Positions 3,277 through 26,192 of a stretch of DNA of 46,624 bases are shown in pieces (positions within the stretch are counted from its first letter, which is position 1; every line of letters begins with the position of its first letter). Source of the DNA: a virus; IMG/VR virus record IMGVR_UViG_3300010371_000014, positions 1 to 46,624 of that record, one strand, 5' to 3'. The position numbers and the translations under genes are program-made. The notes beneath the pieces were generated by a model. The model made no database searches, was not told where the DNA came from, and saw only the letters and a program-made list of their open reading frames with translations.

Positions 3277-3881
3277 GGCAATCTCCACATGATAGGGGTA
3301 CTGATCAGGTCACGTTCCGAGACCGTGGACATGTCACCGAGCCACGCGACCGGCTCGTACCAGAGCGTCTGGAGGATGTGCTGCTGTGCTTCGCGGATAC
3401 TCGTGAGGTGTTGGAGGAAGACCTGATGCTGCATCATGAAGCTCCCGAGCACGCGCCAGGCCGACAGGCCGTGACTCCAGTTTGCGGCGCGGCCGTGCCG
3501 CCAGTGCTTTTCACGCCATTGCATGATGATCGGCCAGAACGGCATACGCTCCAGATCGTTGGGATTGCCAGTCCCGACCGTGTGGAAGCCCAGTCCATTG
3601 TCCTCGGCGACGTACTGGAGTGCGCCGAGCAGTCGTGGCGCTTTCGGTTCGGCCCAGCGCTGATGTCCAACACCACGTTGTTGGTACTTCTCCACAATGA
3701 GGCCGGTCGGATTGGTCCGCATAATCTCCGTCACCGTTTCGTGCAGTGTGCGTGGCGTGGCATGCACGACTGAGGCAAAGGCGCTGTAGCGCGTGCCGAA
3801 GAGTTCCAACGTTGCGACGCCGCACCAGGCATCGCCGGGATCGACGGCAGTCAGACGGATGGCCGGTGGGTTCTGTCTCAT
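3273..3881 (-). CDS. RuvC-like Holliday-junction resolvase / endonuclease.
   Basis: The N-terminal IRLTAVDPGDAWCGVA resembles the RuvC xIDPG catalytic Asp motif, and IVEKY supplies an acidic residue. It has a 4-nt overlap with the DNA polymerase stop. Assignment is by motif only. Confidence 0.45.
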   Translation of the reverse strand: MRQNPPAIRLTAVDPGDAWCGVATLELFGTRYSAFASVVHATPRTLHETVTEIMRTNPTGLIVEKYQQRGVGHQRWAEPKAPRLLGALQYVAEDNGLGFHTVGTGNPNDLERMPFWPIIMQWREKHWRHGRAANWSHGLSAWRVLGSFMMQHQVFLQHLTSIREAQQHILQTLWYEPVAWLGDMSTVSERDLISTPIMWRLP

Positions 3882-5764
3882 AGTTTGATCTTCACCTTGT
3901 TTTGCCAGTTATCGGAGGCACCGCTCATGTCGGCGATGATGGGCACTTTGTACGACTTCAGATCACGCATGAGGCGCAGCACACGGCGATCGGTGGCTGG
4001 ATCACCTTCGGATTCGTACACGAGCTCGTCGTGAATGATGAGGAGGAGTGCGAGCTCACCGCGATTGAGCTGGCACTCCCGGTAGACATTGACCAACCCT
4101 TCCTTGGCTTTGATGCCTGCGGTGCCCTGCACCTTCGTGTTGAACGCAGCGTACCACCGATCGTCACCCTCGTCGAAGAAGCGATGTCCGCCGAAGGCGT
4201 TCATCATGTAGCCGCGCTTCTCAGCCGCTTTGGCCTCACTGCGAATGATGCCGGTGAGCTTCGGCATGCTCTCGTTGAACCGTGCAATGATGCAGCGGGC
4301 GAGGACACGCCACGGCGTGAGACCAGGCGGGATGGATTCTTTGAATGCGCGACAGCCAGCCCGCGCTTCTTTTTCATCAATGAGATTGATGAGCTGTTCG
4401 GTTACTTTATTCTCACCGCCGCCGAAGAGCTTTGTGAAGTTGATGATCTTGGCAAACTTGCGGTGTTGTGATTCAGGATCGTAGAGCTTACCGAACATTC
4501 GGCTCGCTGCCGACCCATGCGTATCAAAATCCGGATCGTTGATGAATCCCTCGATGAGGCTTCGTTCGTTCGCAAAGTGCGCGGCAAAGCGCATCTCAAC
4601 TTGTGAATAGTCAGCGAACCGAAACACCAGCCCCTTTCGTGGACGGTAGGCACGTCGTACTCCCGAGACGCGGGTCTGCTGTTGAAGGTTTGGATCACTA
4701 CAACTGGAGCGCCCCGTGTTCGCGCCCGTCGACTTGAGTGTGCAGTGAATGAGACCGTTGGGCGTGAGTGCCTCAAGCAGACTATTCGCATACGAGCTCC
4801 ACTGCTTGAAGGTTTCGCGGTATTTCACCAACAGCGGGCCAATGGAGTGACTCAGATTCAATAGGGCGACGGCGTCCGTCTTCGGCCCGCCGTCAAGCCC
4901 CATGTCTTCATAAAGCAACTTCTGTAGCTGCTGCCAACTGTTCCAGTTGATTTCTTTCCCGGCCACCTTGATCAGGCGGGCGCGCTGCTTCTCGAGATCG
5001 AGCTTGAGTTCGTCGCGCCATTGCTCGAGGAAGCGCCGGCTCGTCTTGATGCCGCGTGCCTCCATATCACGGAACGCTAGCAGCACCCACTGCTCACGTT
5101 CGTAGACGCTCAGCAGCGATGGGAATGGCGCTTCCTTCCCATTGTCTGGCTGTGCCCAGTTGCAGATACGTGGGTAGAACTGGCGGTGGAGTTCAAGCGT
5201 GTACCACGGGTCGAGTGCGCTGTACTTCGTGAAGAGTGGTTCATCTTCGGTACCGAGCAGGATCGCCCAGTCACCCTTATCCTTGCCGCCGCGTCGCTTG
5301 ATCGCCTCCATCAACTGTTCTTCGTGACTCCCAGCTTGTCGATCGATGTAGGTCGTGGCGAGCGGCTTGAGACTGTGCGGCGACTTCGTCCGCCAGCCGA
5401 AGGCGTTCGCGCCACGATTGTCAATGACGAAGCTCTCCACGGCGGTGTCATGCACAGGGTACGGAAAGTGCAATCCGAATGTTTCTCGAAGCATGTGCAT
5501 ATCAAACTTGGCGTTGTGGAAGACGAACGTGCGTCGCCGCCTGATCTGATCACGCACATAGCGTGCGGCCTTCGGCACAGCATCACGCAATGCACAGATG
5601 GCCGTGTGCCCTGCCGCCAGGTTGATGGTGCCGACCCGCTCCGTCCGCCAGTTGAGGCCGGACGTTTCGGTATCGAGGGCAAGCACGCTGGAGCCCAGCT
5701 TGGCGAATGCTTCGTCGCATCCGTCAGCGGTGTCCAGGATGATCATCTCCTTGGGCTTCTTCAT
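3878..5764 (-). CDS. Family A DNA polymerase with 3'-5' exonuclease domain (T7 gp5 / PolI-like), 628 aa.
   Basis: Exonuclease motifs: LALDTETSGL, FHNAKFDMHML and YSALDPWYTLEL. Polymerase motifs: A DYSQVEMRFAAH, B RKFAKIINFTKLFGGG, C LIIHDELVYE. I set the start at MKKPKEM (ATG 5764) because it makes an ATGA overlap with the upstream gene. The longer ORF to 5905 is Arg/His-rich and overlaps that gene. Confidence 0.92.
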   Translation of the reverse strand: MKKPKEMIILDTADGCDEAFAKLGSSVLALDTETSGLNWRTERVGTINLAAGHTAICALRDAVPKAARYVRDQIRRRRTFVFHNAKFDMHMLRETFGLHFPYPVHDTAVESFVIDNRGANAFGWRTKSPHSLKPLATTYIDRQAGSHEEQLMEAIKRRGGKDKGDWAILLGTEDEPLFTKYSALDPWYTLELHRQFYPRICNWAQPDNGKEAPFPSLLSVYEREQWVLLAFRDMEARGIKTSRRFLEQWRDELKLDLEKQRARLIKVAGKEINWNSWQQLQKLLYEDMGLDGGPKTDAVALLNLSHSIGPLLVKYRETFKQWSSYANSLLEALTPNGLIHCTLKSTGANTGRSSCSDPNLQQQTRVSGVRRAYRPRKGLVFRFADYSQVEMRFAAHFANERSLIEGFINDPDFDTHGSAASRMFGKLYDPESQHRKFAKIINFTKLFGGGENKVTEQLINLIDEKEARAGCRAFKESIPPGLTPWRVLARCIIARFNESMPKLTGIIRSEAKAAEKRGYMMNAFGGHRFFDEGDDRWYAAFNTKVQGTAGIKAKEGLVNVYRECQLNRGELALLLIIHDELVYESEGDPATDRRVLRLMRDLKSYKVPIIADMSGASDNWQNKVKIKL

Positions 5765-5985
5765 GCGAAGTGCATTTCCTTCTGCTGTACGCGAAGGTTG
5801 ATTTCGTTGATGAGATCGATTGGCAAGTTCAACCACGTGCCGGTGCGGTGCACCTCGCCATCTTCGATCTCTTTGATGTCCTCGACGTTGCGTGCGATGA
5901 TGCACTGACTCGGCATGAGAATCTTCTCTGCCATGTATCTGCGTGCCTGCTCATAGTTGCCGGCGAGGATGATGTGCTTCTTCAT
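5761..5985 (-). CDS. Hypothetical protein, 74 aa.
   Basis: A compact ORF with protein-like composition (MKKHIILAGNYEQARRYMAEK...). It is translationally coupled to the polymerase and lies 2 nt after the upstream gene. Confidence 0.55.
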   Translation of the reverse strand: MKKHIILAGNYEQARRYMAEKILMPSQCIIARNVEDIKEIEDGEVHRTGTWLNLPIDLINEINLRVQQKEMHFA

Positions 5986-5987
5986 GG

Positions 5988-6713
5988 CTAGAACACCCCC
6001 TCGTCGGCATCTTTTGCATACAGGTGCAGTGAGCCGGTGAAGAACGTGAAGTGCCCGACCGGCATGACCAGCAGCTTCGCCAGGTACTCTTGCAAGCGGA
6101 TGGCGAGTGCAACGTCGTACGGGAAGTGTGTCAAGAAGTCGCTAGACCGCATGACGTAGATCAGCTGGAGCGCGCCGTTGCGACGCATGAACTGATAGTG
6201 CAGCGAGCAGGGGATGCGCTTCTTTCCGCCCATGTTGCGCAGGTCCATCGGCCCGCAGAAGATGGGCAGGACGGCCTGTCGCGTATCGGGATGATCATGC
6301 AGCTCGTGAAACACGGCTGCCAGCGCACCTGGCGCTTTGATCGGACCAGTGAAGTCCACTGGCATGTTCATGCGCTCAGAATACGTGTAGGCGAATGCGC
6401 CGTTGTGGATGAACTGCGACCAGACTTCGCGCCGCAGTTCCCACGCCGTGCCGGGATTGACCATGTCCGTGATGCGCTCAGCGAACTCCGCTTCGAGCCA
6501 TGTGCTGCTGAGCTCGAGGCTGTCCAGCAGTCCCTTGGCGTCACTGCCGTCGACGATCGTGAAGCCGTAGGGTGACAGTTCCAGTGTTCGGTAGTCCTGA
6601 TTATCGCGGACATCTTTGTCCTGCATGGTTTGGGGATGTACCATGACCCCCATTTCATGGATGTCGCGACGCACATCTGAGTACATCTCTCGGCAGTTTT
6701 GGTAGATACGCAC
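5988..6713 (-). CDS. Thymidylate-synthase-fold pyrimidine C5 enzyme, predicted deoxycytidylate hydroxymethylase or methylase (T4 gp42-like).
   Basis: The nucleophile motif KRIPCSLHYQF is present. YVMRSSDFLTHFPYDVA aligns with ThyA YQRSCDVFLGLPFNIAS, placing Asp at the Asn177-equivalent position. The C-terminal GSLHLY and DTRQAV (phosphate-binding Arg region) also fit. Confidence 0.65.
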   Translation of the reverse strand: MRIYQNCREMYSDVRRDIHEMGVMVHPQTMQDKDVRDNQDYRTLELSPYGFTIVDGSDAKGLLDSLELSSTWLEAEFAERITDMVNPGTAWELRREVWSQFIHNGAFAYTYSERMNMPVDFTGPIKAPGALAAVFHELHDHPDTRQAVLPIFCGPMDLRNMGGKKRIPCSLHYQFMRRNGALQLIYVMRSSDFLTHFPYDVALAIRLQEYLAKLLVMPVGHFTFFTGSLHLYAKDADEGVF

Positions 6714-6715
6714 GA

Positions 6716-7804
6716 TTAGCTCCGCTTCAGGTGTCTGAGGATTTGAGGGATGAGATAGCGAGGGAAACGCGACGGAACCGCCTTGCCTGTGAAGAGCTGT
6801 AGACGGGCGTGATAGGCTCGGTTGAAGATGCGCTGTCCATTCCAGAGATGGAAGTCATCGGGCCAGTCCATAAGGCGTGCGCGCTCACGTGCCGTAAGAA
6901 CCATACCCGTGAGCGGGTGCTGTAGAGTGCCTCCTGAAATGACGCGAGATTTCCCATCGAGCAAAAGACGTACACGTCCGAGCTTCTTTGTAAGTCGATG
7001 AGTTGTCCGAGTACGGTACGGCCAGCACGCCATTGGATGGAGAGCAAGGTATCGAGCCGCCAGCTCCCCTTGGGTCCGAATGTAGGCAGGCGGGTCATCC
7101 GTTGTAGGGTAGCTTCCCGACGGCAGGTCATCAAGCGCGGCGTGGACGTGCGCCAACGATGGTAGATCTTCAACCATTGGTAGATCACTTATGGCCTCCC
7201 AGACCGTGGCCGGCCCGCTGAGTCGGTGCTTTGGGACTTTGAGCTCGAACTTCTTCCCGGGTTTTCGGATCCCGACCACCCAGAGTCGCTCGCGCCGCTG
7301 CGGAGTCCCATAGTCCCAGTTGACCATGGTGATGTAGGTGAGATGGTACTTGGGAAGCGTAGACTCCCACCAGGCAGGCGTGGCTACCCTCTGGAGAATC
7401 TTCGGCAGATTGTCCAACGCAAACGCCCGAGGACGATATGTATTGACCAGCCCTGCGAAGAGAGGAAGCAACCCCACGCGACTGGCCCGACGTGCAGCCA
7501 GAAAAGCACGCTCCGCAGGGTCTTTGTCAAGCGAATGCGCCACGCCCAAGATACTGTGCGCCCCGCATGGCGGATGTCCCAAGGCAAGATCAGCTTCATA
7601 GAAGTTGTGCTCCAAGTGCACTTCAATGGTTCTGCCTTCATCAAGCTTATAAATGCATGGTGCATTCGGGAAGTTGAGATTCCAGACATCTGGGATCGTG
7701 CGATACGGCGCGCGTGTTTCGATATTGCCAATCACTTGCATACCAGCATCCTGCGCCTCGCGGAGCAGCGTACCGATGCCGGCTAGGATGCCGACGGCTC
7801 GCAC
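6716..7804 (-). CDS. DNA (cytosine-5)-methyltransferase-like protein with divergent catalytic motifs, 362 aa.
   Basis: Motif I ILAGIGTL, motif IV GHPPCGAHS (consensus PCQxFS), motif VI ALDNLP (consensus ENV), motif VIII QRRERLWVVG, motif IX LTARERARLMDWPDDF, motif X GKAVPSRF (consensus GNAVP). The GTG start at 7804-7802 shares one base with the upstream TAG. Confidence 0.75.
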   Translation of the reverse strand: MRAVGILAGIGTLLREAQDAGMQVIGNIETRAPYRTIPDVWNLNFPNAPCIYKLDEGRTIEVHLEHNFYEADLALGHPPCGAHSILGVAHSLDKDPAERAFLAARRASRVGLLPLFAGLVNTYRPRAFALDNLPKILQRVATPAWWESTLPKYHLTYITMVNWDYGTPQRRERLWVVGIRKPGKKFELKVPKHRLSGPATVWEAISDLPMVEDLPSLAHVHAALDDLPSGSYPTTDDPPAYIRTQGELAARYLALHPMACWPYRTRTTHRLTKKLGRVRLLLDGKSRVISGGTLQHPLTGMVLTARERARLMDWPDDFHLWNGQRIFNRAYHARLQLFTGKAVPSRFPRYLIPQILRHLKRS

Positions 7805-8424
7805 TAGTAAGAACTCCGTTGGCGGAACTCGTTCACCTGCGCTTTGCGGAAGTAGTAACTAAACAGATGTTCTTGTGTGTACCCCAGGTCGGCCCACAGG
7901 AGCAGCATGGCGACGTAGGTATCTAGCAGGGCATTGCAGAACCTGTTGACATCTGTCGGGACCTGCGACTCTTTCCACGCCTTGTTCTTGAGGAAGTTCA
8001 TGGCGACGCCGAGCTTGAACGTCACTTGCCAGTACGCATCGCTCGATGCTGAATGCCGGCGGACTGGTGGGAAGTCTTTCGTGGCGACGAGGCACTGATG
8101 CACGCCGACGCCAGCAAAGAGGCACAGCTCCACGAAGAAGTGCATCGCATCAGCGAGTTCTTCGAGTGCGTGGACTTCACCTTCCTCGCGGTGCTTGTGC
8201 TTGAACCATGCTTCGTACGACTCGGTCAGTTCTTCGACCGTGCGCCACGCGAAGTCTTTGAGCACCTTCTGCCCGCTGTGCGTGTGCAGCGAGACCGGCC
8301 AGTCTGGGAGCTTCTCGATATCCCGATATCGGGTCATGAGCTGCTCTTGCTTGAGGAAAATCATGGGCAGCATCTCAGCCCAAGTCTTCGGCGGGGCGGG
8401 GGCGATGGTGTCGTTGACGTTCAT
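7804..8424 (-). CDS. All-alpha NTP pyrophosphohydrolase (dimeric dUTPase / dCTPase-like, MazG superfamily).
   Basis: Acidic helices AWRTVEELTESYEAW and ALEELADAMHFFVEL, then LKNKAWK and the C-terminal KAQVNEFRQRSSY, resemble recalled dimeric dUTPase (dUTPase_2) signatures. I set the start at MNVNDT (ATG 8424) because of the ATGA overlap with the kinase stop. Confidence 0.5.
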   Translation of the reverse strand: MNVNDTIAPAPPKTWAEMLPMIFLKQEQLMTRYRDIEKLPDWPVSLHTHSGQKVLKDFAWRTVEELTESYEAWFKHKHREEGEVHALEELADAMHFFVELCLFAGVGVHQCLVATKDFPPVRRHSASSDAYWQVTFKLGVAMNFLKNKAWKESQVPTDVNRFCNALLDTYVAMLLLWADLGYTQEHLFSYYFRKAQVNEFRQRSSY

Positions 8425-8975
8425 GGGCAGCGGAGGGCAAAAGTGGATTGATTGAGCAGATCGCGGTGCCACGACAACAACTTCTCAACAAGTGCATTGT
8501 GCGGATCACATGTCCAGTCGTATCGAAAGACGAGATAGCCACGAGCGAGTTGCGGGAGGCGGCGACGATACGCCTCGGCGATAAGCAGCGGGTCACGATC
8601 GTAGAGCTGCGTCCGCTTGGCCCATGTGGCACGAATCACTTCATCTGCCGTATCACACCAGATGATGAGCATCGGATATGTCCTGAACAGCGCGTAGAGT
8701 TCGAAGTGTTCAGCGGTCGTCATACGGCAGCCACCTCGGAAGATCGGCCCGTAGATGCATTCACTGAAGAATGTCCGATCACTCACACTGTTGGCGTGTG
8801 CGCGCAGATCTTCGTTGGGCGGCAGCAACGCATCGACGTGCGTTCGGCCGATCGTGCCCTCCATTCCTGGCTTGAACCGTTCGCGCTTTAGCAGTCGGAG
8901 TGATGGATCGCCGGCCAGCAGCTTGTCGATCAGCGTGGACTTCCCAGTATTGTCTGCCCCTTCAACAACGATCAT
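8421..8975 (-). CDS. P-loop deoxynucleoside-monophosphate kinase (thymidylate-kinase-like).
   Basis: The Walker A context MIVVEGADNTGKSTLIDKLL is typical of Tmk/dNMP kinases. The size is about 184 aa. I set the start at ATG 8975 (ATGA overlap with the primase stop). Confidence 0.6.
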   Translation of the reverse strand: MIVVEGADNTGKSTLIDKLLAGDPSLRLLKRERFKPGMEGTIGRTHVDALLPPNEDLRAHANSVSDRTFFSECIYGPIFRGGCRMTTAEHFELYALFRTYPMLIIWCDTADEVIRATWAKRTQLYDRDPLLIAEAYRRRLPQLARGYLVFRYDWTCDPHNALVEKLLSWHRDLLNQSTFALRCP

Positions 8976-11077
8976 GTCGCGAGTTCCTTGAGGGTATTGA
9001 TTCCGCGCCACCCGCGGACCCCATTCCGCTTGGTGGGCGTGAGCTCGGCGCGTTCACTGAGCAAACGACTGAACCACGCCACGGAGATAGGCGTGCGCGT
9101 GCCTCGGGCGCCGAGCCACCAATCATTGAAGGCGCGGAAGAGTTCAGTGGTTGATGCCCAAGCTGCAGGATCCAGTACGCATGATGATGCCACGAACTCG
9201 CCGAGCACATCGTTTTCCTCCTTGTAGACGTTCGTGGCCTTTCGGACGATACTTGGAATCCCTAGTCCGTTGCGTTGCCACTCAAGACAACCAACCGCAA
9301 TCCACTGCAGAATGCCGTTGCGCTCGCTGAGAAGTTTGCCGAGGAGTTTGTCATCCCGACGTGTTCGATCAAAGGTAACAGTGAAGGGGATAAGACGCAA
9401 GCGACGCCAGAAAGCTTCAGATTGCTCCTTGACCACCGGCTTGTGATTCGCTGCCAAGAAGAGCTTATGTTGAGGCTTGAACTCGAAGAGCTCTTCATAC
9501 AGTTTTCGGGCGGTAATGGTATCGCCGCCAGTAAGCTGTTTGAGGATCCGTCCATCAAAAGGACGCTCTCCCGAGGCTTCAGACGCGGTAACAAATCGCG
9601 CGCCACGCATACGCGCCAGGTCGTTCCGTGGGCCATCACCGTGACGCTCCATAAACGTGGAGAAATCTGACTGCTGCGCGTAGTCACCGAGGACCGCACG
9701 AATCGTTTCAAAAAACTTAGACTTGCCATTGCCACCTTGCCCGTAGCAGAAGAAGAGGCATTCTTCACGGACATCGCCGGTTGCCCCGTAGCCGACGATC
9801 CGCTGCAAATACGCTTGCAGCTCGCGATCGCCATCAGTGATTTCATGGAGGAACTGTGTCCAGCGCGGCGCTTTGGCCTTCGGATCCCAGTCGACCGGTG
9901 CCAGCTTGGTGATCAAGTCTTCACGCTGATGCTTCTGCAACTTGCCGGTCTTCAGGTTCAGTGTGCCGTTGTTTACGTTCAAAAGCCACGGGTCAGCGTC
10001 AAACGCATCGGCCGTCAGCGCCACCTCTGGTTCGGTCGACGCCAGCTCCAGCAACGCCTTGACCCGAGGTGCTGCTTCGGACTTTGCCGCGTGCTTCAGG
10101 AGTCCGTCACGCGCATCCGTATCGGTCAGTGTCGCCGCCTCGCGATAGAGGTCGCGCACCGTCGTCTTTGCCAGCCGCTCAATCGCCCCCGTTGCATCAG
10201 GCACCCAGCGTGGACCATCCCATGCATACCAGATCCGAGAGCGTCGCCCTGTGGCGCAGCGGACATGCTCGTGATGTGCACCGACGAACCGCCGCGCATT
10301 GCCCAGATCAGTGAGATGCTCGGTTAGCGGTGCTGGCTCCTTGAGGCTGATGCTGTTCGCGATCTTGCGTATTTGCTTACTGCTCAGCGGCGGATCACAT
10401 CGGGTTTCGTTTTCTTCTTGTAAGGCCAGGTAGATCGCCTCAGCAGAAGCACCTCGCCGCCGCATACTCCCAGCAAGAGAAGTAAGTAGCTCGTCACGAT
10501 GGCCCTCGCCAATGACCACTGGCAGTGGCGCTGCAGCCATGTGGCGAGGTGCTGCGCCACTGAGCTTTCCATTGAGTGCATGTTGCACCGTGATGGGAAA
10601 CGGCATCAGGTCGCGGCGTCGCAGCCATTTGTACCGTCGTCCGGTGTCGGGATGAATGCTCGGCGGGGCGACCACATAGCCACCATCGCCGAGGACGTCA
10701 AATGACAGTTCTTTGCCGAGCGGCCGAATCATACGACGAATCGTCGTTCCATCGAGCGGGGGAGCAAAGTAGAGATGCCGTCGCTTGCGATTGCGGCTCG
10801 TCGCTTCATAGGTCTCAGGGATCCCAAGCTCCTCGATGAAGCGTCGCCCCGTCGGGCCATCAAGGTCAATGATGATGGGTCCACGAGTCGAACTACAAGC
10901 GATGCCAACGTTTGCGTCGGGATACAATGACCACCAGTGCCGAATCGCTGAGCGTTCGGTTGTGGCATCGACGTGCCCATGCGAGCCAGGGAATGGGTGT
11001 TTGCCTTTCAGCGGAAACACTTTCCATCCCCTGGCCGCATACCGCAGCGCCGATGACAGCAGGTCGGGTGCGGGCAC
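8972..11077 (-). CDS. Bifunctional primase-polymerase / SF3 helicase (Prim-Pol N-terminus plus D5/P4-type NTPase).
   Basis: The N-terminus AARGWKVFPLKGKHPF...VDATTE...ANVGIAC...IIIDLD fits a Prim-Pol domain. The central region is D5_N-like. Walker A is CYGQGGNGKSKF, and a downstream Walker B / arginine-finger region (RFVTASE) follows. Confidence 0.85.
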   Translation of the reverse strand: MPAPDLLSSALRYAARGWKVFPLKGKHPFPGSHGHVDATTERSAIRHWWSLYPDANVGIACSSTRGPIIIDLDGPTGRRFIEELGIPETYEATSRNRKRRHLYFAPPLDGTTIRRMIRPLGKELSFDVLGDGGYVVAPPSIHPDTGRRYKWLRRRDLMPFPITVQHALNGKLSGAAPRHMAAAPLPVVIGEGHRDELLTSLAGSMRRRGASAEAIYLALQEENETRCDPPLSSKQIRKIANSISLKEPAPLTEHLTDLGNARRFVGAHHEHVRCATGRRSRIWYAWDGPRWVPDATGAIERLAKTTVRDLYREAATLTDTDARDGLLKHAAKSEAAPRVKALLELASTEPEVALTADAFDADPWLLNVNNGTLNLKTGKLQKHQREDLITKLAPVDWDPKAKAPRWTQFLHEITDGDRELQAYLQRIVGYGATGDVREECLFFCYGQGGNGKSKFFETIRAVLGDYAQQSDFSTFMERHGDGPRNDLARMRGARFVTASEASGERPFDGRILKQLTGGDTITARKLYEELFEFKPQHKLFLAANHKPVVKEQSEAFWRRLRLIPFTVTFDRTRRDDKLLGKLLSERNGILQWIAVGCLEWQRNGLGIPSIVRKATNVYKEENDVLGEFVASSCVLDPAAWASTTELFRAFNDWWLGARGTRTPISVAWFSRLLSERAELTPTKRNGVRGWRGINTLKELAT

Positions 11078-11083
11078 GTCGGA

Positions 11084-11827
11084 CTACTTCTTCCGGCGCG
11101 CGTTCTTCTTGGCCGGTGCCGCCTTCTTCTTGGCGGGCTTCTTCACCGGCTCATCATCCTCGTCTTCTTCCTCATCCGCTTCATCTTCTTCCTCGTCGTC
11201 ATCATCGTCCGATTCGTCCTCGTCCTCGCTCTCCTCTTCGTCTTCGTCGTCGGACTCGTCATCATCGGCGTCGTCATCATCGTCAGACTCATCTTCATCG
11301 TCTTCCGACTCCTCCTCGTCATCTTCATCTTCTTCGTCGCTTTCGTCATCCGCATCTTCTGTGTCTTCGTCATCGGCATCTTCGTCCTCCTCTGATTCCT
11401 CGTCCTCGTCAGCCGCCGCCCCGAGCGGCAGCCACTGGACGACCTCGTTCTTGTCATTGCCGTTGTACTTCGTCTTGCGGAGCACGACGTCCAGCTCCGT
11501 GCCGGCGATCAGCGTCAGTAGGTCCTGCAGCGTCTTGATCTTCTTGCTGGCCTTGGCGAAGTCGAGCCCGCACGCCTTCAGGAGCTGTGCGATTTTCCAG
11601 CCGACGGACGCGCCGACTGCGTCGAAGAACGTGACGCCTTTGGACTTGCCGTTCGTGATGGTCGCGTGCACGTTCAGATAGTCGCCGTTGCTGCCCGCTT
11701 TGATCGACGTGCCCTTCGCGCTGCCCTTGCTGATCTTCGCCGTGTACCGTCCGCTAGGCGCGACCTTGAACTTCTTGTCCTCGAAGTCTTCCTTGGTCAG
11801 TCCTGCGATCTTGCTGCTCTTCGGCAT
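11084..11827 (-). CDS. SSB-like protein (DUF669-type fold expected) with an 87-residue polyacidic tract and a lysine-rich C-terminal tail.
   Basis: The N-terminal 135 aa (PSGRYTAKISKG...GDYLNVHATITNGKSKGVTFFDAV...WKIAQLLKACGL) resembles the DUF669 proteins that accompany Sak4-type ATPases. Residues 140-226 contain only D, E, S, A and T. The tail is PVKKPAKKKAAPAKKNARRKK. Confidence 0.55.
   Translation of the reverse strand: MPKSSKIAGLTKEDFEDKKFKVAPSGRYTAKISKGSAKGTSIKAGSNGDYLNVHATITNGKSKGVTFFDAVGASVGWKIAQLLKACGLDFAKASKKIKTLQDLLTLIAGTELDVVLRKTKYNGNDKNEVVQWLPLGAAADEDEESEEDEDADDEDTEDADDESDEEDEDDEEESEDDEDESDDDDDADDDESDDEDEEESEDEDESDDDDDEEEDEADEEEDEDDEPVKKPAKKKAAPAKKNARRKK
11150..11410 (-). repeat. 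Low-complexity GAN/GAR codon tract encoding the 87-aa D/E-rich segment.
   Basis: The plus strand reads as runs of tcntc/gtcntc (tcatcatcctcgtcttcttcctcatc...). It generates a spurious poly-Ser ORF on the opposite strand (10836..11681). Confidence 0.9.
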
Positions 11828-15705: not shown

Positions 15706-16155
15706 TTACACGGTTGCGCGCACTACTGGAAGCCCTGCTGGTGGAATGACTGAAATGACCGTGATATGCGCCGCCTGGAGTAGGTCAATACCGTCGGTCT
15801 TACGATAGAACTGTCGAAAATACACCTTCCCAATCCCGGTGTTGATGATCGCCTTGGCGCATGATGCGCAGGGCGAGTGCGTGACGAAGAGTACCAGATC
15901 AACATCTGTCGACACGCCACCAGGTGCTTTGAGCATCGCATTGAGTTCCGCATGCACGCAACCGCACGCGCCTACTTCGTCCGTATCGCAGATGTTGGGC
16001 AGTCCAGCGGCATTCCCATTGTAGCCGATAGCCACAGCCTTTGTGAGCGAACTGTTGGTGATCACCGCACCGACGCGCAGCCGTCGGCAGGTCCCGCGCT
16101 GTGCAACGACCTCAGCGATTTCCATCCACATCTCTTCGCGACTAATGCGATACAT
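15706..16155 (-). CDS. dCMP deaminase (ComEB / T4 Cd-like zinc deaminase).
   Basis: The zinc motifs CVHAELNA (HAE) and PCASCAKAI (PCxxC) are present with typical spacing. The size is 149 aa. Confidence 0.85.
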   Translation of the reverse strand: MYRISREEMWMEIAEVVAQRGTCRRLRVGAVITNSSLTKAVAIGYNGNAAGLPNICDTDEVGACGCVHAELNAMLKAPGGVSTDVDLVLFVTHSPCASCAKAIINTGIGKVYFRQFYRKTDGIDLLQAAHITVISVIPPAGLPVVRATV

Positions 16156-16581
16156 TCAGTGGTTCTCCCCTGACGGGTCGGCGAGGAGGGGAGCGGCACC
16201 CGCTGAGAGGTCAGGTGATTCAAACGATTCTTCGCGAGGGCCGACAGCGAGGAGGCCAAGGTTGTCCAGCGTGTTCCGCATTTCCTTCACCGCGAAGGCG
16301 AATCCTGCATCCCATGTTTTCCGCATCACATCCCGTTCCTGCGTGTCACGTTGCCCTGCCGCTCCGCTCTCCCGCTGATGGGCGGCGGATGAGTAATCCA
16401 GCTCGACTGCGCCCGCTTTCACGATGGGATTGAGCGCTGCTTCCACGGAGGCTGTGGCGAACTCGCGGGCAGCAACAGCCGATGAATCTGCGACCCCCAG
16501 CCGCGCGAGATTCCATTTTCGTTGGCATATCTGCTCATCGGTGGCGTCCGCTCGGAGCGGCTGGTCTGGACTCCATGTCAT
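16156..16581 (-). CDS. Hypothetical protein, 141 aa.
   Basis: I set the start at MTWSPDQ (ATG 16581). GAGGAA lies upstream and it makes an ATGA overlap with the lipoprotein stop. The longer 215-aa form is Arg/Gly-rich and overlaps the lipoprotein ORF. Confidence 0.5.
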   Translation of the reverse strand: MTWSPDQPLRADATDEQICQRKWNLARLGVADSSAVAAREFATASVEAALNPIVKAGAVELDYSSAAHQRESGAAGQRDTQERDVMRKTWDAGFAFAVKEMRNTLDNLGLLAVGPREESFESPDLSAGAAPLLADPSGENH

Positions 16582-16808
16582 GGCTTCCTCGGGGGTAGCG
16601 AGTCGAATAGGTGGGTGCATCGGGTTTCCCCGTCCGCCAGCGAGGTGTACGCCACCCGTTGCAGGACGGCGATGGAGTCCGCGTGCGTGGCGGCCATCTG
16701 CATATCGTTCCAGCATCCCTTCCGTGCGTGCCGCACGACCACGGACTCCCCGCACCCGCTCACCAGCACCGCGAGCAGCACGCCCGCGATTCGTGGAGTC
16801 CATGTCAT
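16578..16808 (-). CDS. Small lipoprotein, 76 aa; candidate superinfection-exclusion or envelope-acting early protein.
   Basis: MTWTPRIAGVLLAVLVSGCGE has a basic n-region, a hydrophobic core and the lipobox VSG|C. GAGG lies about 9 nt upstream of the ATG. It is translationally coupled to the downstream gene. Confidence 0.65.
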   Translation of the reverse strand: MTWTPRIAGVLLAVLVSGCGESVVVRHARKGCWNDMQMAATHADSIAVLQRVAYTSLADGETRCTHLFDSLPPRKP

Positions 16809-16818
16809 GAGGGAACCT

Positions 16819-17064
16819 CTAGTTCAGTGATCGTTTGCTCACCGGAATGCCCAGTGGCACTGCATCGCGTGTGGTCGCTTCCAGCTTGTCGAGAACCGCA
16901 TGAATCTCGGCGCAGGTGTGTTCGCGCATTTTCCACCGTGCCGCGAGTGCGACCATCGGTGCAAAGGTATCGGGATCCGCCAGCTCCACATGGTCAGCGG
17001 CATGCGTTTGTGCCAGCGCCAGCGCAATCATCCCCGCTTCGCGTGGTGTGAGGTCGAGGATCAC
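16819..17064 (-). CDS. Hypothetical protein, 81 aa.
   Basis: An ORF in the operon chain with a 4-nt overlap with the upstream gene. Confidence 0.5.
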   Translation of the reverse strand: MILDLTPREAGMIALALAQTHAADHVELADPDTFAPMVALAARWKMREHTCAEIHAVLDKLEATTRDAVPLGIPVSKRSLN

Positions 17065-17279
17065 GGCTTCGCCCCTTCGCCGACACGCCGTGCACCCTTG
17101 CTCATTTCGAAGACTTCGAACTGATCTTCATAGATGAAGAGCTTTCCACGCTCATCAAAATCTGTTGGGCCGAGTTTCCCCGTCAGCATCTTGTCCCGCG
17201 CCTGGATATAGCGGCACTTCAAGCGCTGTGCCACCTGCGTCGGGTAGAGCTTCTTCCGCTTCTCAGGACCTTTTGGCAT
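17061..17279 (-). CDS. Hypothetical protein, 72 aa, possibly HTH DNA-binding.
   Basis: KLYPTQVAQRLKCRYIQARDKMLTGKLG looks like a short helix-turn-helix. The TAATG junction with the upstream gene supports coding. Confidence 0.45.
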   Translation of the reverse strand: MPKGPEKRKKLYPTQVAQRLKCRYIQARDKMLTGKLGPTDFDERGKLFIYEDQFEVFEMSKGARRVGEGAKP

Positions 17280-17710
17280 TAGCTGGGCTCCTTGGCGTCA
17301 CGCTTGCGATGCTCTTGTATCCGACGAAGCTGGTCGAGATGGATCAGCCGCAGATCGCCGACGATGACTTGGTTCTTGTTGAACTCGGGAATGAGCTCGC
17401 CGAGCTTGCCGGCCGTGGCATCGAGATCCTTCCGCAGTCCATTGACGAGCCGCCGTTCAGCGGCAACGGCGTCGAGCACGCCGAGCCAACGACAGATCGC
17501 GAGCTTGACCGTGTTATCCTGGCGCTGACTCCACGCCCGAAAGACGCGGTGACCACGCAGCAGCGGCCACAGCAGATGCAGCACCCACCACGGTGGCGTG
17601 GGCTCCTCAGCTTTCGGGATTTGCTGCATCTCCTCGAGTGTCGACACGGGATCGATCGGCGTCGGCGCTGGCGTGATCACGCCTGCAATCTTGGATTCGT
17701 CTGTCGCCAT
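17279..17710 (-). CDS. Hypothetical protein, 143 aa.
   Basis: An ORF in the operon chain. A Trp-rich hydrophobic segment (PPWWVLHLLWPLL) suggests membrane association. Confidence 0.5.
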   Translation of the reverse strand: MATDESKIAGVITPAPTPIDPVSTLEEMQQIPKAEEPTPPWWVLHLLWPLLRGHRVFRAWSQRQDNTVKLAICRWLGVLDAVAAERRLVNGLRKDLDATAGKLGELIPEFNKNQVIVGDLRLIHLDQLRRIQEHRKRDAKEPS

Positions 17711-17713
17711 GAT

Positions 17714-17938
17714 TTAGTACCGTCCTGGCAGTTTGGTGATGATCTTCCCACCTTCCTTCGCTTCGCGTCCCAACTTCATGATCGCTGTGACCGCGCGCGT
17801 GGCATAGAGCTTGGCCGGACTGACGCCCTTGCCGTCCTTCGCTGCGATTTCCTTCAAAATCGTGTCCATGTCCGGCGTGACGATGGTTTCGACATGTCCA
17901 TCGACCGTGTCACGGATGATGATGCGCACTTCAGCCAT
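17714..17938 (-). CDS. Hypothetical protein, 74 aa.
   Basis: A compact ORF with balanced composition (MAEVRIIIRDTVDGHVETIVTPDMDTILKEI...). Confidence 0.5.
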   Translation of the reverse strand: MAEVRIIIRDTVDGHVETIVTPDMDTILKEIAAKDGKGVSPAKLYATRAVTAIMKLGREAKEGGKIITKLPGRY

Positions 17939-17941
17939 ACG

Positions 17942-18154
17942 CTATCCAGGATAGAGGATGTGGCATCGCGCCACGATATCAGCTTCGATCGCCCGAAGCT
18001 GTGCTTTCAGTCGTTTCCGCTTGACGCTCCGCTGGTGATTGACCCGACTGCGATCGGGGTGGAGCGGCCCGACCTTGCGCAGCACCAGCCCCAACGCCGA
18101 CAGTGTCACGCGATGATGGGCGAGGAGACCGAGCAGCTCAGGATCAGGAGTCAT
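17942..18154 (-). CDS. Hypothetical protein, about 70 aa; start uncertain (ATG 18154 or GTG 18208).
   Basis: The ORF follows a 117-170 bp gap. Neither candidate start has a clear Shine-Dalgarno sequence. Confidence 0.35.
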   Translation of the reverse strand: MTPDPELLGLLAHHRVTLSALGLVLRKVGPLHPDRSRVNHQRSVKRKRLKAQLRAIEADIVARCHILYPG

Positions 18155-18209
18155 AGATTGCGACGGGTGCGAAGTGAAGCGGTACTTGATGACATAAATA
18201 TACAGCACT

Positions 18210-18238
18210 CAGCCCCGCGCTGGAATGGCACGGGGCTG
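18210..18238 (-). promoter_or_regulatory. Hairpin in the largest internal gap of the leftward arm, next to an AT-rich patch. Possible intra-operon terminator/attenuator plus internal promoter.
   Basis: cagccccg (18210-18217) pairs with cggggctg (18231-18238), giving an 8-bp stem and a 13-nt loop. Downstream on the minus strand lies ctgtatatttatgtcat, which is -10-like. There is no convincing -35 or U-tract. Confidence 0.2.
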
Positions 18239-18325
18239 ATGGAGCAGGGCACTTACCGTCGGATCCGATGCTTATGCCCGCGATGCGTCCTGAGCACCTC
18301 GAGACGGAGGGGACGCTGATTGGTG

Positions 18326-19126
18326 CTACGCCGCGAGCTTGCGCTGGAGCTTGCGGACCGAGCGGTTGACGGCCGAGAGCTTGGATGCGCGTCCCGGCTT
18401 GTTCGCCTCGCGCGCGGCGAGGGCGAGCTCGTTGATGTGATCGCGGAGTTCCGCGAGCGCGCTGGACGAGCACTTCTCGGCTTCGAGCTTCGCGATCGTC
18501 GGGTGCTTGACGTTCAGTTCACGGAGCGCCTGCGCCGTGCTGCCCATCGCGCTGTTGGAGCGGGACTCGCTTGCTTCACCCTTCACGGTCGGTGCCTCGG
18601 CCTTCGCGGACGCTGCGGCCTTGGTCTTGGTCTTCGCCATACGGTCCTCCTTGGTGTGAGCCTGCGTGAGTCGGAGCAGTACCTCTTTGAAGTCGGCATT
18701 CTGCTTCGACTTGGGAACGGAACCACCGAACTCCCGAATGATCTGTCGGGCCAGATTGCGATCGGCTGCCTTCATACTAGTGATCCACTGCGGCATTGTC
18801 CAGCCCTGTGATGCCAGCACCTCGCGGAGCCGATCCCAGCCAGTGAGCGGCTCGGTGCGGTCGTAGGGCAGATAGGTCACCACTGCGCCCTTTGCGGGCG
18901 TCCAGACCGTGTTGCGGGCCAGCCAGCCACGGTGCAGGCGTCCGACCACATCGGCGTATTCGACGTAGGGTTCGTTCTTGCACGCTGTCGTGGAGCTGAC
19001 ATTCGACGTTTCCCACTCATCCGGTGGGAGGAGCCGGACGACCGCGCCTGCGCCGAGCGCGAGGGGATGATAGGCGCGATCCTGCGGCACGATGAGCGCA
19101 CTGCGGAGCAACATGTAGTATTTCAT
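18326..19126 (-). CDS. Hypothetical protein, 266 aa, with a Lys/Ala-rich central linker.
   Basis: I set the start at MKYYML (ATG 19126) because it forms an ATGA overlap with the 54-aa upstream ORF. It contains VVTYLPYDRTEPLTGW, a motif shared with that upstream ORF. Confidence 0.5.
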   Translation of the reverse strand: MKYYMLLRSALIVPQDRAYHPLALGAGAVVRLLPPDEWETSNVSSTTACKNEPYVEYADVVGRLHRGWLARNTVWTPAKGAVVTYLPYDRTEPLTGWDRLREVLASQGWTMPQWITSMKAADRNLARQIIREFGGSVPKSKQNADFKEVLLRLTQAHTKEDRMAKTKTKAAASAKAEAPTVKGEASESRSNSAMGSTAQALRELNVKHPTIAKLEAEKCSSSALAELRDHINELALAAREANKPGRASKLSAVNRSVRKLQRKLAA

Positions 19127-19287
19127 TCGACAGGTTCCCAGTAGTAAACGTGCGGTGGCAGGTTGTGGTCGATGATGAAGCACGCGGCCTGTTGTTGATC
19201 TGGGAACGTGAGTGGTTCGTCGCGGTCGTAGGGCAGATAACTCCAGGTCACGACCCACCCGTTGCGATGACGAATGCGATAGCGCAT
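19123..19287 (-). CDS. Hypothetical protein, 54 aa (below the ORF-track cut-off).
   Basis: My manual translation is MRYRIRHRNGWVVTWSYLPYDRDEPLTFPDQQQAACFIIDHNLPPHVYYWEPVE. It has a TAATG junction upstream and an ATGA junction downstream, and it shares a motif and an 18-nt identity with the next gene. Confidence 0.5.
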   Translation of the reverse strand: MRYRIRHRNGWVVTWSYLPYDRDEPLTFPDQQQAACFIIDHNLPPHVYYWEPVE

Positions 19288-19562
19288 TAGCTCACCATGC
19301 CTGCGGCAAGGAAGAGGTGGACGAAGCGGAGTACCGTATCCGGATGGACCTTGGCCCGCTTGCGGAAGCGGTTCATCCGTCGGACGCTGAGATGCCCGCG
19401 GATGAAGCCGACGAGGTTGTGCTGATCATCGTAGACGGCGTAGCAATAGGCCGTGTGGACGTTCCAATGCTCACCGCGTTGCTGCCGCAGCCGCTGTGCG
19501 CGCATGTGCCGACGAGCATCGTCGCGCGCCGCGAGGACAATGTGTGCTTCAGGCATGGTCAC
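19287..19562 (-). CDS. Hypothetical protein, 91 aa.
   Basis: An ORF in the operon chain, coupled on both sides. Confidence 0.45.
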   Translation of the reverse strand: MTMPEAHIVLAARDDARRHMRAQRLRQQRGEHWNVHTAYCYAVYDDQHNLVGFIRGHLSVRRMNRFRKRAKVHPDTVLRFVHLFLAAGMVS

Positions 19563-19783
19563 TTTCCTCCTGGCGTGCTGTACGGTGGGAAGGGGTACTC
19601 ACGTGTGCTGAGCTTGTCCTCGAGCATGCGATAGCGGACGTTCGGCGGTGCGCGGTGCTTCAAGCGCCGCAGCTCAGCGTAGGCGCGTGCCTTGCGGCTA
19701 GAGCTGGGGATGGTGCGCGTGGTGACGCTGCGCCCATCTGCGCCCGTCGTCATCTCGAGAATCCCGTGGCGACGGTTACGCAT
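19559..19783 (-). CDS. Hypothetical protein, 74 aa.
   Basis: An ORF in the operon chain with a 4-nt overlap downstream. Confidence 0.4.
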   Translation of the reverse strand: MRNRRHGILEMTTGADGRSVTTRTIPSSSRKARAYAELRRLKHRAPPNVRYRMLEDKLSTREYPFPPYSTPGGK

Positions 19784-19964
19784 GGATCACCTCGAAGGTG
19801 CAAACTTCCCCTGATCCGTCGACGAGCCCGTTGCTGGGGTCAGCAACAAACTCCGCGGCGTCGGTCAACCCGTCGACGGTCATGATGAAGGTCTCTTCGT
19901 ACGTCCGCGTGATGCGGATGCGCAACATGGACTGCTGCTTGCTCGGACGCTTTTTCGACTTCAT
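19776..19964 (-). CDS. Hypothetical protein, 62 aa.
   Basis: I set the start at MKSKKRPSK (ATG 19964), which is preceded by GGAGGA (plus-strand cctcc at 19971-19975). The longer 127-aa form lacks coding character. Confidence 0.5.
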   Translation of the reverse strand: MKSKKRPSKQQSMLRIRITRTYEETFIMTVDGLTDAAEFVADPSNGLVDGSGEVCTFEVIHA

Positions 19965-20026
19965 GGTGTTCCTCCAGGTGTGTGGTCGGATACCTGCGTG
20001 CAACGGACGGAACGCGGAACGCATCG

Positions 20027-20173
20027 TTACTGCTTCCTCCAGAGCGTGGACGGAATGAACAACGGGAAGACTACGGGTGGTGCAGTGACGGGCAGCGGTC
20101 CAGCGGTCCAGCACAGCGCCAAGAGCTGGAGGACGTGCTCGTACGCGGGGCGGGTGCAAGTGACGGTGATCAT
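20027..20173 (-). CDS. Hypothetical small hydrophobic protein, 48 aa (below the ORF-track cut-off).
   Basis: My manual translation is MITVTCTRPAYEHVLQLLALCWTAGPLPVTAPPVVFPLFIPSTLWRKQ. It has an ATGA overlap with the upstream stop at 20170-20173. Confidence 0.3.
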   Translation of the reverse strand: MITVTCTRPAYEHVLQLLALCWTAGPLPVTAPPVVFPLFIPSTLWRKQ

Positions 20174-20547
20174 GAGTGCCTCGCCGACGGTCCAGTCTTC
20201 ATCATCCGATCCAGCGCGCGTGAGTGCTGTGCACCCGCAGGATTGAAGATGGAGAGCGGGTCATCGCTATCATCGTCCTCCCCGCCGACGAGCGGATCAA
20301 GGAAGTTGCCGATGCGCGGGTCCTCGACGACACCGTCGGTGTACTCGGGATCCACGGCGACGGACTGCCACCGTGCGTGCATCTCCACTGCGGTCAGGCT
20401 GTGCGCCAGCCACGCGCTCCATGCCGCGTAGCGGCCAAAGAGGCTGGGGTAGCGCAGCTTCGGCTCGGCCGCAGCGAGGGTAAGCATCGCCTGACTGTGC
20501 TCGGTGAACGCGGCCTGCGCCTGCCGGAACTTGGGGGAATGTTTCAC
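20170..20547 (-). CDS. Hypothetical protein, 125 aa.
   Basis: An ORF in the operon chain with an acidic patch, GGEDDDSDDP. Confidence 0.5.
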   Translation of the reverse strand: MKHSPKFRQAQAAFTEHSQAMLTLAAAEPKLRYPSLFGRYAAWSAWLAHSLTAVEMHARWQSVAVDPEYTDGVVEDPRIGNFLDPLVGGEDDDSDDPLSIFNPAGAQHSRALDRMMKTGPSARHS

Positions 20548-21332: not shown

Positions 21333-21565
21333 AATGCCACCGTCATGGTGCTGATGCTGACCGCGTAGATATCCTCGTAGTCCTCGGGGAATGGTTCAGC
21401 ATCCGCGGGGTCTTGCTCGGCGAGCCATTCAGCACGGAGCGCAGTAAGCGCCTCGGCATTGGAGAGGTGCCCTGGGAAGATGTAGGGCTGCGGGCAATCC
21501 ACGCCGTCATCGTAAAGCGTGACGATGACGACCGTCAGCTTCCGCTTGTTGAGTTTCCGTGGCAT
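21329..21565 (-). CDS. Hypothetical acidic protein, 78 aa.
   Basis: An ORF in the operon chain. The sequence is MPRKLNKRKLTVVIVTLYDDGVD...DPADAEPFPEDYEDIY. Confidence 0.5.
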   Translation of the reverse strand: MPRKLNKRKLTVVIVTLYDDGVDCPQPYIFPGHLSNAEALTALRAEWLAEQDPADAEPFPEDYEDIYAVSISTMTVAL

Positions 21566-21567
21566 GT

Positions 21568-24595: not shown

Positions 24596-24609
24596 CTACC
24601 TTGCGCTCC

Positions 24610-25022: not shown

Positions 25023-25025
25023 CGC

Positions 25026-25780: not shown

Positions 25781-25783
25781 GCC

Positions 25784-26188: not shown

Positions 26189-26192
26189 TCGC

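Follow-up and report, generated by a model that had tools for sequence, protein, structure and literature searches.

Pre-replicative replacement of cytosine is a main route by which phages escape restriction and CRISPR nucleases, and it is also a source of enzymes for epigenetic sequencing. Among the closest described systems is that of phage T4, in which the deoxycytidine monophosphate (dCMP) hydroxymethylase gp42 is accompanied by the pyrophosphatase gp56 and the kinase gp1. A locus of related design is described here in a stretch of 46,624 nucleotides (positions 1 to 46,624 of IMG/VR record IMGVR_UViG_3300010371_000014; hereafter the window), which represents an uncultured phage, present in ENA and JGI assemblies, with a 46-kb genome of PolA podovirus type and a T7-type portal and capsid. 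Four minus-strand genes between positions 5988 and 8975 encode a kinase, a pyrophosphatase, a homologue of DNA C5-methyltransferases and a homologue of thymidylate synthase (ThyA), and this module most likely swaps the cytosine of the genome for a C5-modified form. The T4-style logic is already known; what is new is that a ThyA-fold clade to which the published product rules do not extend is combined with a CmoX-like, virus-only clade of C5-methyltransferase homologues.

The likeness to T4 comprises an Asp177 ThyA-fold enzyme with a short C-terminus (gp42 has 246 amino acids), a pyrophosphatase of family PF08761, and the presence in one genome of a nucleotide kinase and of a dCMP deaminase. 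The window differs from T4 in the Arg143 (Asp in T4) and Gln127 of its ThyA-like enzyme, in a kinase unrelated to gp1, and in having a C5-methyltransferase-fold gene in place of a glucosyltransferase. Asp177 is also found in MilA (PDB 5jnh, 5b6d) of the mildiomycin pathway, which keeps Asp169 as the window enzyme does but has Asp143, Gly173 and an extra C-terminal domain (about 320 amino acids in all), and the substrate of which is a ribonucleotide in bacterial antibiotic synthesis. The dCMP methylases of XP12 (289 amino acids) and PaMx74 (298 amino acids) are Asp177 homologues accompanied by a gene of the dCMP deaminase family, theirs being selective for 5-methylcytosine (5mC); they have an Arg21 loop and a C-terminal tail like those of ThyA, needed for hydride transfer, together with Asn143 and a dihydrofolate reductase (DHFR) gene next door. 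The 5-hydroxy-dCMP synthases RB69 gp48 and DLP3 gp80 are likewise short Asp177 homologues encoded in hypermodification clusters, and they are set apart by the diagnostic D169N, whereas the window clade keeps Asp169 throughout.

Several of these residues have been used as predictive marks. An enzyme specific for dCMP is told by Asp in place of Asn177, a hydroxymethylase by an acidic residue at position 143 (proposed to let in or activate water), and a flavin-dependent 5-hydroxy-dCMP synthase by Asn in place of Asp169 (PMC13326640). Cytosine-modified viral contigs are discriminated most strongly by positions 177 and 147, and Asp177 homologues are enriched among them (PMC8670742). The Asn177-to-Asp change alone is reported to turn ThyA into a dCMP methylase (cited in PMC13326640 and PMC8670742). 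Deaminases linked to Asp177 homologues act on the nucleotides of 5-hydroxymethyldeoxycytidine and 5-methyldeoxycytidine, and in 5mC phages they make thymidine triphosphate (dTTP) from 5-methyldeoxycytidine triphosphate (preprint 10.1101/2024.12.05.627091). As for the methyltransferase fold, CmoX is a phage C5-methyltransferase homologue that moves a carboxymethyl group from carboxy-S-adenosylmethionine (carboxy-SAM), the carboxylate of which is bound by Arg350 (PMC12783734). M.MpeI and M.CviPI gain the use of carboxy-SAM when Lys or Arg is engineered into the corresponding position (N374K in M.MpeI; PMC13288465).

The ThyA-Like Enzyme

The ThyA-like gene (5988-6713, minus strand) encodes 241 amino acids and matches PF00303 Thymidylat_synt (E 5e-11). 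Its motifs RIPCSLHYQF, YVMRSSDFLTHFPYDVA and GSLHLY align column-for-column with E. coli ThyA and with T4 gp42, where the last of them reads GSLHVY, and the match to gp42 proposed in an earlier reading of the sequence alone (the first-pass annotation) was thereby borne out. The protein was aligned with E. coli ThyA, T4 gp42, RB69 gp48, the XP12 and PaMx74 enzymes and 119 database relatives; the indices of the E. coli reference sequence were verified at Cys146, Asn177, Leu143, Asp169, Trp80 and Tyr94. The column of ThyA Asn177 is occupied by Asp in the window protein and in 119/119 relatives, and the same Asp is found there in phmmer alignments (T4 Td, MilA) and in BLASTP to gp42. This family alignment confirms the first-pass proposal that the nucleophilic Cys is kept and Asn177 is replaced by Asp, no misalignment being seen at the column. 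Eight residues, Trp80, Tyr94, Arg126, Cys146, Arg166, Ser167, Asp169 and His207, are identical to those of ThyA and invariant in the clade, which has in addition a signature of its own: Arg143, Gln for Arg127, His for Gly173 and Ser for His147. By the Asn177-to-Asp criterion the substrate would be a cytosine nucleotide, and Asp169 points to a folate cofactor. We conclude that the protein is a predicted C5 enzyme of folate type, specific for dCMP, and that it belongs to a new clade, which counts 344 database matches and 238 loci in IMG/VR.

The enzyme is short. Of the 266 positions of the Pfam profile, 79-216 are matched, and 4 residues further on, just past GSLHLY, the sequence stops; ThyA's C-terminal segment, which covers the folate, is missing. 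Scores against the NCBIfam ThyA models were far below the cut-offs (47 versus 174.55 bits and 37 versus 327 bits). The first-pass annotation had proposed a structure comparison, and when an AlphaFold2 model (pLDDT 96.2) was submitted to Foldseek, the closest structure was the CMP hydroxymethylase MilA (E 9e-17, TMq 0.78), ahead of ordinary ThyA structures (TMq 0.60-0.74). MilA is also the best sequence match in the PDB, and identity to T4 gp42 is 27% over 111 amino acids (BLASTP E 1e-7).

Position 143 is Arg in 119/119 relatives, as compared with Asp in T4 and MilA, Glu in RB69, Leu in E. coli and Asn in XP12 and PaMx74, so that no characterised relative shares the Arg. Since Arg143 is neither acidic nor Asn, the published product rule gives no reading, and the first-pass annotation was right to be cautious about the final base. 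The product is probably 5-hydroxymethyl-dCMP, as a best guess; a methyl or other product is also possible. The hydroxymethyl product would be favoured about three to one over 5-methyl-dCMP, and something new would deserve about the same weight as the methyl product given the invariant Arg143 and His173, with which the nucleotide-level product itself could be new. This widespread, uncharacterised clade of short dCMP-specific ThyA-fold enzymes falls outside the published rules for methyl, hydroxymethyl and hydroxy products.

Kinase, Pyrophosphatase and Deaminase

Translational coupling links the four minus-strand genes, the existence of which was confirmed. The first-pass annotation had them all joined by overlaps of 1-4 nucleotides; genes and strand hold, as do two ATGA overlaps, which at base level join the primase to the kinase at 8972-8975 and the kinase to the pyrophosphatase at 8421-8424, and a single nucleotide at 7804 shared by the pyrophosphatase and the methyltransferase-like gene. 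The exception is the junction between the methyltransferase-like and ThyA-like genes, where there is a gap of 2 nucleotides and no overlap.

The kinase (8421-8975, minus strand; 184 amino acids from the ATG at 8975) resembles thymidylate kinases. It matches phrog_761 'thymidylate kinase' (E 3e-12) and its sequence contains the P-loop VEGADNTGKST and a DR motif, in keeping with its first description as a thymidylate or deoxynucleoside monophosphate kinase-like P-loop protein. It is weakly similar (E 1e-4) to RB69 ORF045, which lies in the cytosine-modification cluster of RB69, and 23% identical to the kinase of Clostridium phage CPAS-15. BLASTP against T4 gp1 gave no similarity (E 35), and sequence searches of the PDB with the kinase and the pyrophosphatase returned nothing usable. 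The kinase would therefore be an analogue and not a homologue of gp1, phosphorylating modified dCMP. The proposal that the cassette reproduces the gp1/gp56/gp42 logic stands as far as the cytosine-specific enzyme, the PF08761 family and the conserved trio are concerned, and fails for homology of the kinase to gp1. In some related loci (designated here by L numbers), the kinase is fused to a C-terminal domain of the uracil-DNA glycosylase superfamily, PF03167 (L007:7071-8084, L006:6900-7907, L093:2803-3750). The N-terminal half of these fusions is 40-45% identical to the window kinase (40% for L007), which itself lacks PF03167.

The all-alpha nucleoside triphosphate (NTP) pyrophosphatase (7804-8424, minus strand), for which the ATGA shared with the end of the kinase gene defines the start, matches PF08761 dUTPase_2 (E 6e-8 to 8e-8). 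Both this protein (33.6 bits) and T4 gp56 (25.4 bits) pass the PF08761 cut-off of 22.9, which upholds the earlier assignment to the gp56 superfamily, and the two share a C-terminal ...RQxxxY motif; the window protein is also 33% identical to the 'dUTPase' of CPAS-15. Judged by its family, it would hydrolyse deoxycytidine triphosphate (dCTP), and deoxyuridine triphosphate as well, to the monophosphate, clearing dCTP and feeding dCMP to the ThyA-like enzyme. Its place is taken by a pyrophosphatase of PRA-PH type in L092 and L093. L092 keeps the kinase, the Asp177/Arg143 ThyA-like gene and the methyltransferase-like gene, indicating that the module needs an NTP pyrophosphatase activity; L093, truncated at a contig edge, has no visible ThyA-like gene and is uninformative on it.

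The dCMP deaminase-family protein recognized by the first-pass annotation at 15706-16155 (minus strand) proved sound (PF00383, E 4e-20; phrog_174, E 8.5e-46). It belongs to the same replication operon, its best PDB match is the dCMP deaminase of cyanophage S-TIM5 (4p9c, E 1e-23), and it would feed the dTTP branch from dCMP or from modified dCMP or dCTP.

Conservation was assessed by a pattern scan of IMG/VR, which gave the 238 ThyA-like relatives; 80 loci were fetched, and neighbours were clustered over 85 loci. A pyrophosphatase is found beside the ThyA-like gene in 78-81 of these, PolA in 63, the kinase cluster in 45, and a dCMP deaminase within 6 kb in 33-35/85. The gene order is the same in the related podoviruses L005-L008. 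By tblastn, ThyA-like relatives of 37-41% identity were also found in Clostridium perfringens phages and gut phages, where they are preceded by a kinase and a 'dUTPase'; no DNA-modification data were found in the literature on the C. perfringens phages carrying the module. The trio of kinase, pyrophosphatase and ThyA-like enzyme is a conserved phage module, present in about 85 loci.

The C5-Methyltransferase-Like Gene

Between the pyrophosphatase and ThyA-like genes lies a gene for a 362-amino-acid protein (6716-7804, minus strand) that matches PF00145 DNA_methylase (E 6e-14). Its AlphaFold2 model (pLDDT 90.5) retrieved DNA C5-methyltransferases in Foldseek (3g7u, DNMT1, HhaI, HaeIII). The fold is whole and includes a target-recognition domain; both the catalytic Pro-Cys (GHPPCG) and the QxRxR of motif VIII (PQRRER) are kept. 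The ENV motif of C5-methyltransferases reads DNL, and the GN of motif X reads GK; this Lys341 aligns with the Asn of GNAV in M.HaeIII and with Arg350 of CmoX. Among 103 full-length family members, the motif X position is Lys in 86, Arg in 17 and Asn in none, the Glu of ENV is Asp in 99/103, and the Cys is present in 103/103. The family is sharply bounded: some 110 proteins are at least 41% identical, and identity then falls to 33% or less. Its best match in 50,697 deposited phage records reaches 24% identity, and 185,579 bacterial and archaeal genomes yielded two weak matches. The clade is virus-only, and its near-absence from cellular genomes means that it is not part of bacterial restriction-modification systems; with two weak genome matches only, no host was inferred. 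The 'Dcm-like' label given at first is misleading in view of the motif X Lys, the Asp of ENV and this distribution.

These features make the protein a candidate carboxymethyltransferase using carboxy-SAM, or a tailoring enzyme. With CmoX (PDB 8yf3) and M.MpeI N374K it shares the C5-methyltransferase fold, the catalytic Cys and a cationic residue at the position of Asn304 in HhaI, Arg350 in CmoX and N374 in MpeI. Related proteins of the family are about 23-26% identical to CmoX by tblastn, while the window gene itself gave no direct match. A virus-only C5-methyltransferase-fold clade thus naturally bears the Lys/Arg substitution that engineers use to obtain carboxymethyltransferases, and it is genetically tied to a replacement module. 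Such a tie to a ThyA-like gene is unmentioned in the CmoX paper (PMC12783734). Two other C5-methyltransferases downstream of ThyA-like genes (L011:7564-9988, L020:6711-7739) have canonical ENVP and SPxC yet a Lys in motif X, and all C5-methyltransferase homologues found near ThyA-like genes have Lys or Arg there.

The linkage recurs across lineages. The methyltransferase-like gene adjoins the ThyA-like gene in L005, L006 (by our own open reading frame call), L007 and L008, and it is adjacent or one small open reading frame (ORF) away in the unrelated low-GC or mid-GC loci L028, L050, L081 and L085; adjacency is kept across lineages whose methyltransferase-like proteins are only about 30% identical. 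At least 30 family matches were paired with contigs bearing a ThyA-like gene by identical size, which is an indirect match. In L039, where two methyltransferase-like genes follow the pyrophosphatase, the clustering labelled no ThyA-like ORF. A divergent member (ENL and Arg type) occurs in a temperate element, L094, that has no ThyA-like gene.

Over the 85 loci, the slot between the pyrophosphatase and ThyA-like genes is filled by a 250-amino-acid protein in 55, by the methyltransferase-like protein in 10 and by neither in 20, and never by both. Examples of the 250-amino-acid protein are L001:5208-5957 (Clostridium phage CPAS-15) and L048:5207-5989, and two copies are present in L045, L046 and L057. 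It is labelled 'colanic acid biosynthesis glycosyltransferase' in CPAS-15; this identity was rejected, as the protein has no Pfam match and falls in PHROG 34294 of unknown function. An argument that a sugar acceptor implies a hydroxymethyl group was withdrawn for the same reason. Its only invariant residues, a Tyr, a Cys and an Asp, align with Tyr94, Cys146 and Asp177 of ThyA (hhalign, a weak match with probability 23% and E 9e-4). The protein may represent another ThyA-fold enzyme that has diverged strongly.

In eight loci, asparagine synthase-like genes (PF00733 with a glutamine amidotransferase domain, 450-580 amino acids; the CmoY family) stand in or beside the cassette, with a methyltransferase-like gene in L028, L039, L081 and L085 and without one in L012, L026, L033 and L079. 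These neighbours hint at further cytosine hypermodifications of amide type.

Palindrome Depletion

Counts of palindromes were compared with expectation under a maximal-order Markov model. AATT is absent from the whole window (0 observed versus 40.4 expected, z = -6.4), and TTAA occurs once against 8.5 expected. In the closest relative, L005, AATT occurs once against 14.6 expected and TTAA not at all against 5.7; the pattern was not seen in L006, L007 or L092. AGTACT is depleted in the window as well (0 versus 7.6 expected). Outright purging is confined to A/T-only sites, AATT and, nearly so, TTAA, and the C-containing ones are at most partly depleted. A purge of A/T-only sites is what would be expected if G:C-containing sites were already protected, and it provides circumstantial support for global cytosine protection. 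It suggests that an AATT-specific host restriction enzyme, similar to MluCI or Tsp509I, selects at sites beyond the reach of cytosine modification.

Proposed Pathway and Alternatives

In the proposed pathway, the pyrophosphatase would hydrolyse dCTP to dCMP, which would then be attacked at C6 by Cys169 of the ThyA-like enzyme (equivalent to ThyA Cys146), and a one-carbon unit from methylene-tetrahydrofolate would be added at C5, 5-hydroxymethyl-dCMP being favoured as the product over 5-methyl-dCMP. The thymidylate kinase-like kinase would carry this product towards the triphosphate, the adjacent PolA would incorporate, and hence would have to accept, the modified nucleotide, and the dCMP deaminase would supply the thymidine branch. 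The methyltransferase-like protein would then act as a second, post-replicative layer of protection on cytosines with a free C5, most likely transferring carboxymethyl from host-made carboxy-SAM or, failing that, methyl from S-adenosylmethionine (SAM). We give this full explanation, the C5-replacement pathway with the methyltransferase-like second layer, a probability of roughly 0.6. The two enzymes together may protect cytosine at two levels in a single 46-kb phage, or tailor 5-hydroxymethylcytosine in a new way.

Several observations weigh against this explanation. One difficulty, passed over in the first-pass annotation, is that, if all cytosines were substituted at C5, a C5-alkyltransferase would be left without a substrate, and the adjacency of the two genes in at least five divergent lineages sits uncomfortably with an independent second layer. 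In the ThyA-like enzyme, Gln for Arg127 means that one phosphate ligand is missing, and Arg143 matches neither the known hydroxymethylases, which are acidic at this position, nor the methylases of XP12 and PaMx74, which have Asn. As for the second layer, CmoX has SPPC and a conserved Glu where the window family has HPPC and Asp, and its definition used Arg specifically at position 350, where the window protein has Lys (PMC12783734); engineered Lys and Arg variants, moreover, still use SAM (PMC13288465). No match to the CmoA and CmoY of S-B43 was obtained by tblastn in the window or in more than 90 fetched loci, although a host CmoA could substitute, in which case carboxy-SAM would come from the host. 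Finally, some C-containing palindromes are depleted too (GGCGCC, 5 versus 23 expected; ACGCGT, 2 versus 14). The default reading of the conflict over C5 would be incomplete replacement, with the methyltransferase-like protein protecting residual cytosines in its target motif.

The alternative that fares best, while still doubtful, is that the methyltransferase-like protein is an ordinary site-specific, SAM-dependent 5mC methyltransferase with an anti-restriction role, functionally unlinked to the ThyA-like gene. The complete fold with its target-recognition domain, catalytic Cys and QxRxR would suit such an enzyme, JGI annotates relatives as site-specific DNA-cytosine methylases, and both the SAM use of engineered variants and the failure to find a CmoA gene in the window or the fetched loci would be unsurprising. 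An ordinary enzyme would, however, be expected neither to lack the motif X Asn in all of 103 members, with Lys or Arg invariant, nor to have Asp for the Glu of ENV in 99/103. A clade absent from bacterial genomes (bar the two weak matches), and hence from restriction-modification systems, and absent from deposited phage genomes also speaks against it, as do adjacency to the ThyA-like gene at only about 30% identity and the AsnB-like ligases alongside in four loci.

Less probable is a system of XP12 type, in which the ThyA-like enzyme would be a dCMP methylase, 5-methyl-dCTP would replace dCTP and the deaminase would divert part of the 5-methyldeoxycytidine nucleotides to thymidine nucleotides. 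The Asn177-to-Asp change, reported to suffice for a dCMP methylase, is compatible with this, and so are the non-acidic position 143, the deaminase in the same operon and the role of such deaminases in 5mC phages. The window enzyme is nevertheless of 241 and not about 290 amino acids, has Arg143, and, unlike the XP12 and PaMx74 enzymes, possesses neither the Arg21 loop nor the C-terminal tail. The methylase reaction uses up the reducing power of tetrahydrofolate; XP12 and PaMx74 both have DHFR next door, and no DHFR was found among the window ORFs scanned. The closest structure, furthermore, is a hydroxymethylase, and the deaminase, closest to an ordinary phage dCMP deaminase, shares only 26-28% identity with its XP12 and PaMx74 counterparts.

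A somewhat more remote variant is that the methyltransferase-like protein tailors the ThyA-like product already in DNA and not free cytosine. The conserved slot, the exclusivity with the 250-amino-acid protein and the Glu-to-Asp change of ENV, which would make room for the extra CH2-O, would fit this. Carboxymethyl from carboxy-SAM may be placed on the hydroxyl of 5-hydroxymethylcytosine, as a DNA counterpart of CmoB making cmo5U in tRNA; or the Cys may attack C6, with the hydroxyl expelled and a carboxylate-bearing nucleophile, held by the Lys or Arg, coupled in its place. Either route, if true, would give a new hypermodified cytosine.

The least probable of the alternatives still carrying weight is a module serving the thymidine branch, without replacement of virion cytosine. 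Here dCMP would be converted to a 5-substituted dCMP and then to thymidine monophosphate (dTMP) or 5-hydroxymethyl-deoxyuridine monophosphate for the kinase, the pyrophosphatase would be a dUTPase or dTTPase, and canonical cytosines would be modified after replication by the methyltransferase-like enzyme. The conflict over C5 would disappear, and the thymidylate kinase-like kinase, a Pfam family named for dUTPases, the activity of Asp177-linked deaminases on 5-hydroxymethylated and 5-methylated deoxycytidine nucleotides and the occurrence of the methyltransferase-like clade without a nearby ThyA-like gene in L094 would all be accommodated. The route offers no obvious gain over enzymes specific for deoxyuridine monophosphate (dUMP), however, and only about 40% of loci have a deaminase within 6 kb of the ThyA-like gene. 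Enrichment of Asp177 homologues in cytosine-modified contigs (PMC8670742) is also against it, and T4 replaces its cytosine and has a dCMP deaminase too. A canonical thymidylate synthase converting dUMP to dTMP is rejected by Asp177, the short C-terminus and the sub-cut-off NCBIfam scores, and a flavin-type 5-hydroxy-dCMP synthase of RB69 gp48 type by Asp169, kept in 119/119 relatives where RB69 gp48 has Asn.

Locus and Genome Context

The module belongs to a minus-strand replication operon in the order primase-helicase, kinase, pyrophosphatase, C5-methyltransferase-like gene, ThyA-like gene, 74-amino-acid ORF and PolA. A megablast of window positions 5500-9500 against the 50,697 phage records found no nucleotide-level relative. 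When 26 window ORFs were searched against Pfam, and 10 unassigned ones against PHROGs as well, no glycosyltransferase, TET/JBP, DHFR or CmoA was found, in agreement with the first-pass annotation, which had recognized no glycosyltransferase.

The primase-helicase gene (8972-11077, minus strand) forms the upstream end of the coupled chain; its orthologue in L005 (701 amino acids) contains Prim-Pol, PriCT_1, D5_N and DUF5906 domains. At the downstream end, the family A DNA polymerase gene (3878-5764, minus strand) was identified by tblastn to phage PolA genes, and its orthologues carry DNA_pol_A_exo1 and DNA_pol_A. The 74-amino-acid ORF between the ThyA-like gene and PolA (5761-5985, minus strand) has no Pfam or PHROG match; by coordinates, its stop overlaps the probable PolA ATG (5764) as ATGA. 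Its position is empty in L005 and taken by a 38-amino-acid ORF in L006.

Upstream of the primase, before a gene for an AAA_24 ATPase, lies a gene for a 247-amino-acid protein (11084-11827, minus strand) of which the last 100 residues or so are nearly all Asp or Glu, followed by a Lys-rich tail. Relatives have an unannotated ORF of 243-276 amino acids in the same slot, and the protein may resemble single-stranded-DNA-binding proteins or be a DNA mimic. The approximately 10 kb at 16156-26314 hold 17 ORFs of 78-384 amino acids on both strands, some possibly spurious as they come from greedy ORF calling in a GC-rich region. These lack a Pfam or PHROG match, the sole exception being a weak match to the terminase large subunit at 23456-24595. 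The final 8 kb are occupied by a single ORF of 2,643 amino acids (38193-46124, plus strand), and its relatives at the same place have 2,269-3,216 amino acids and an LPD22 domain.

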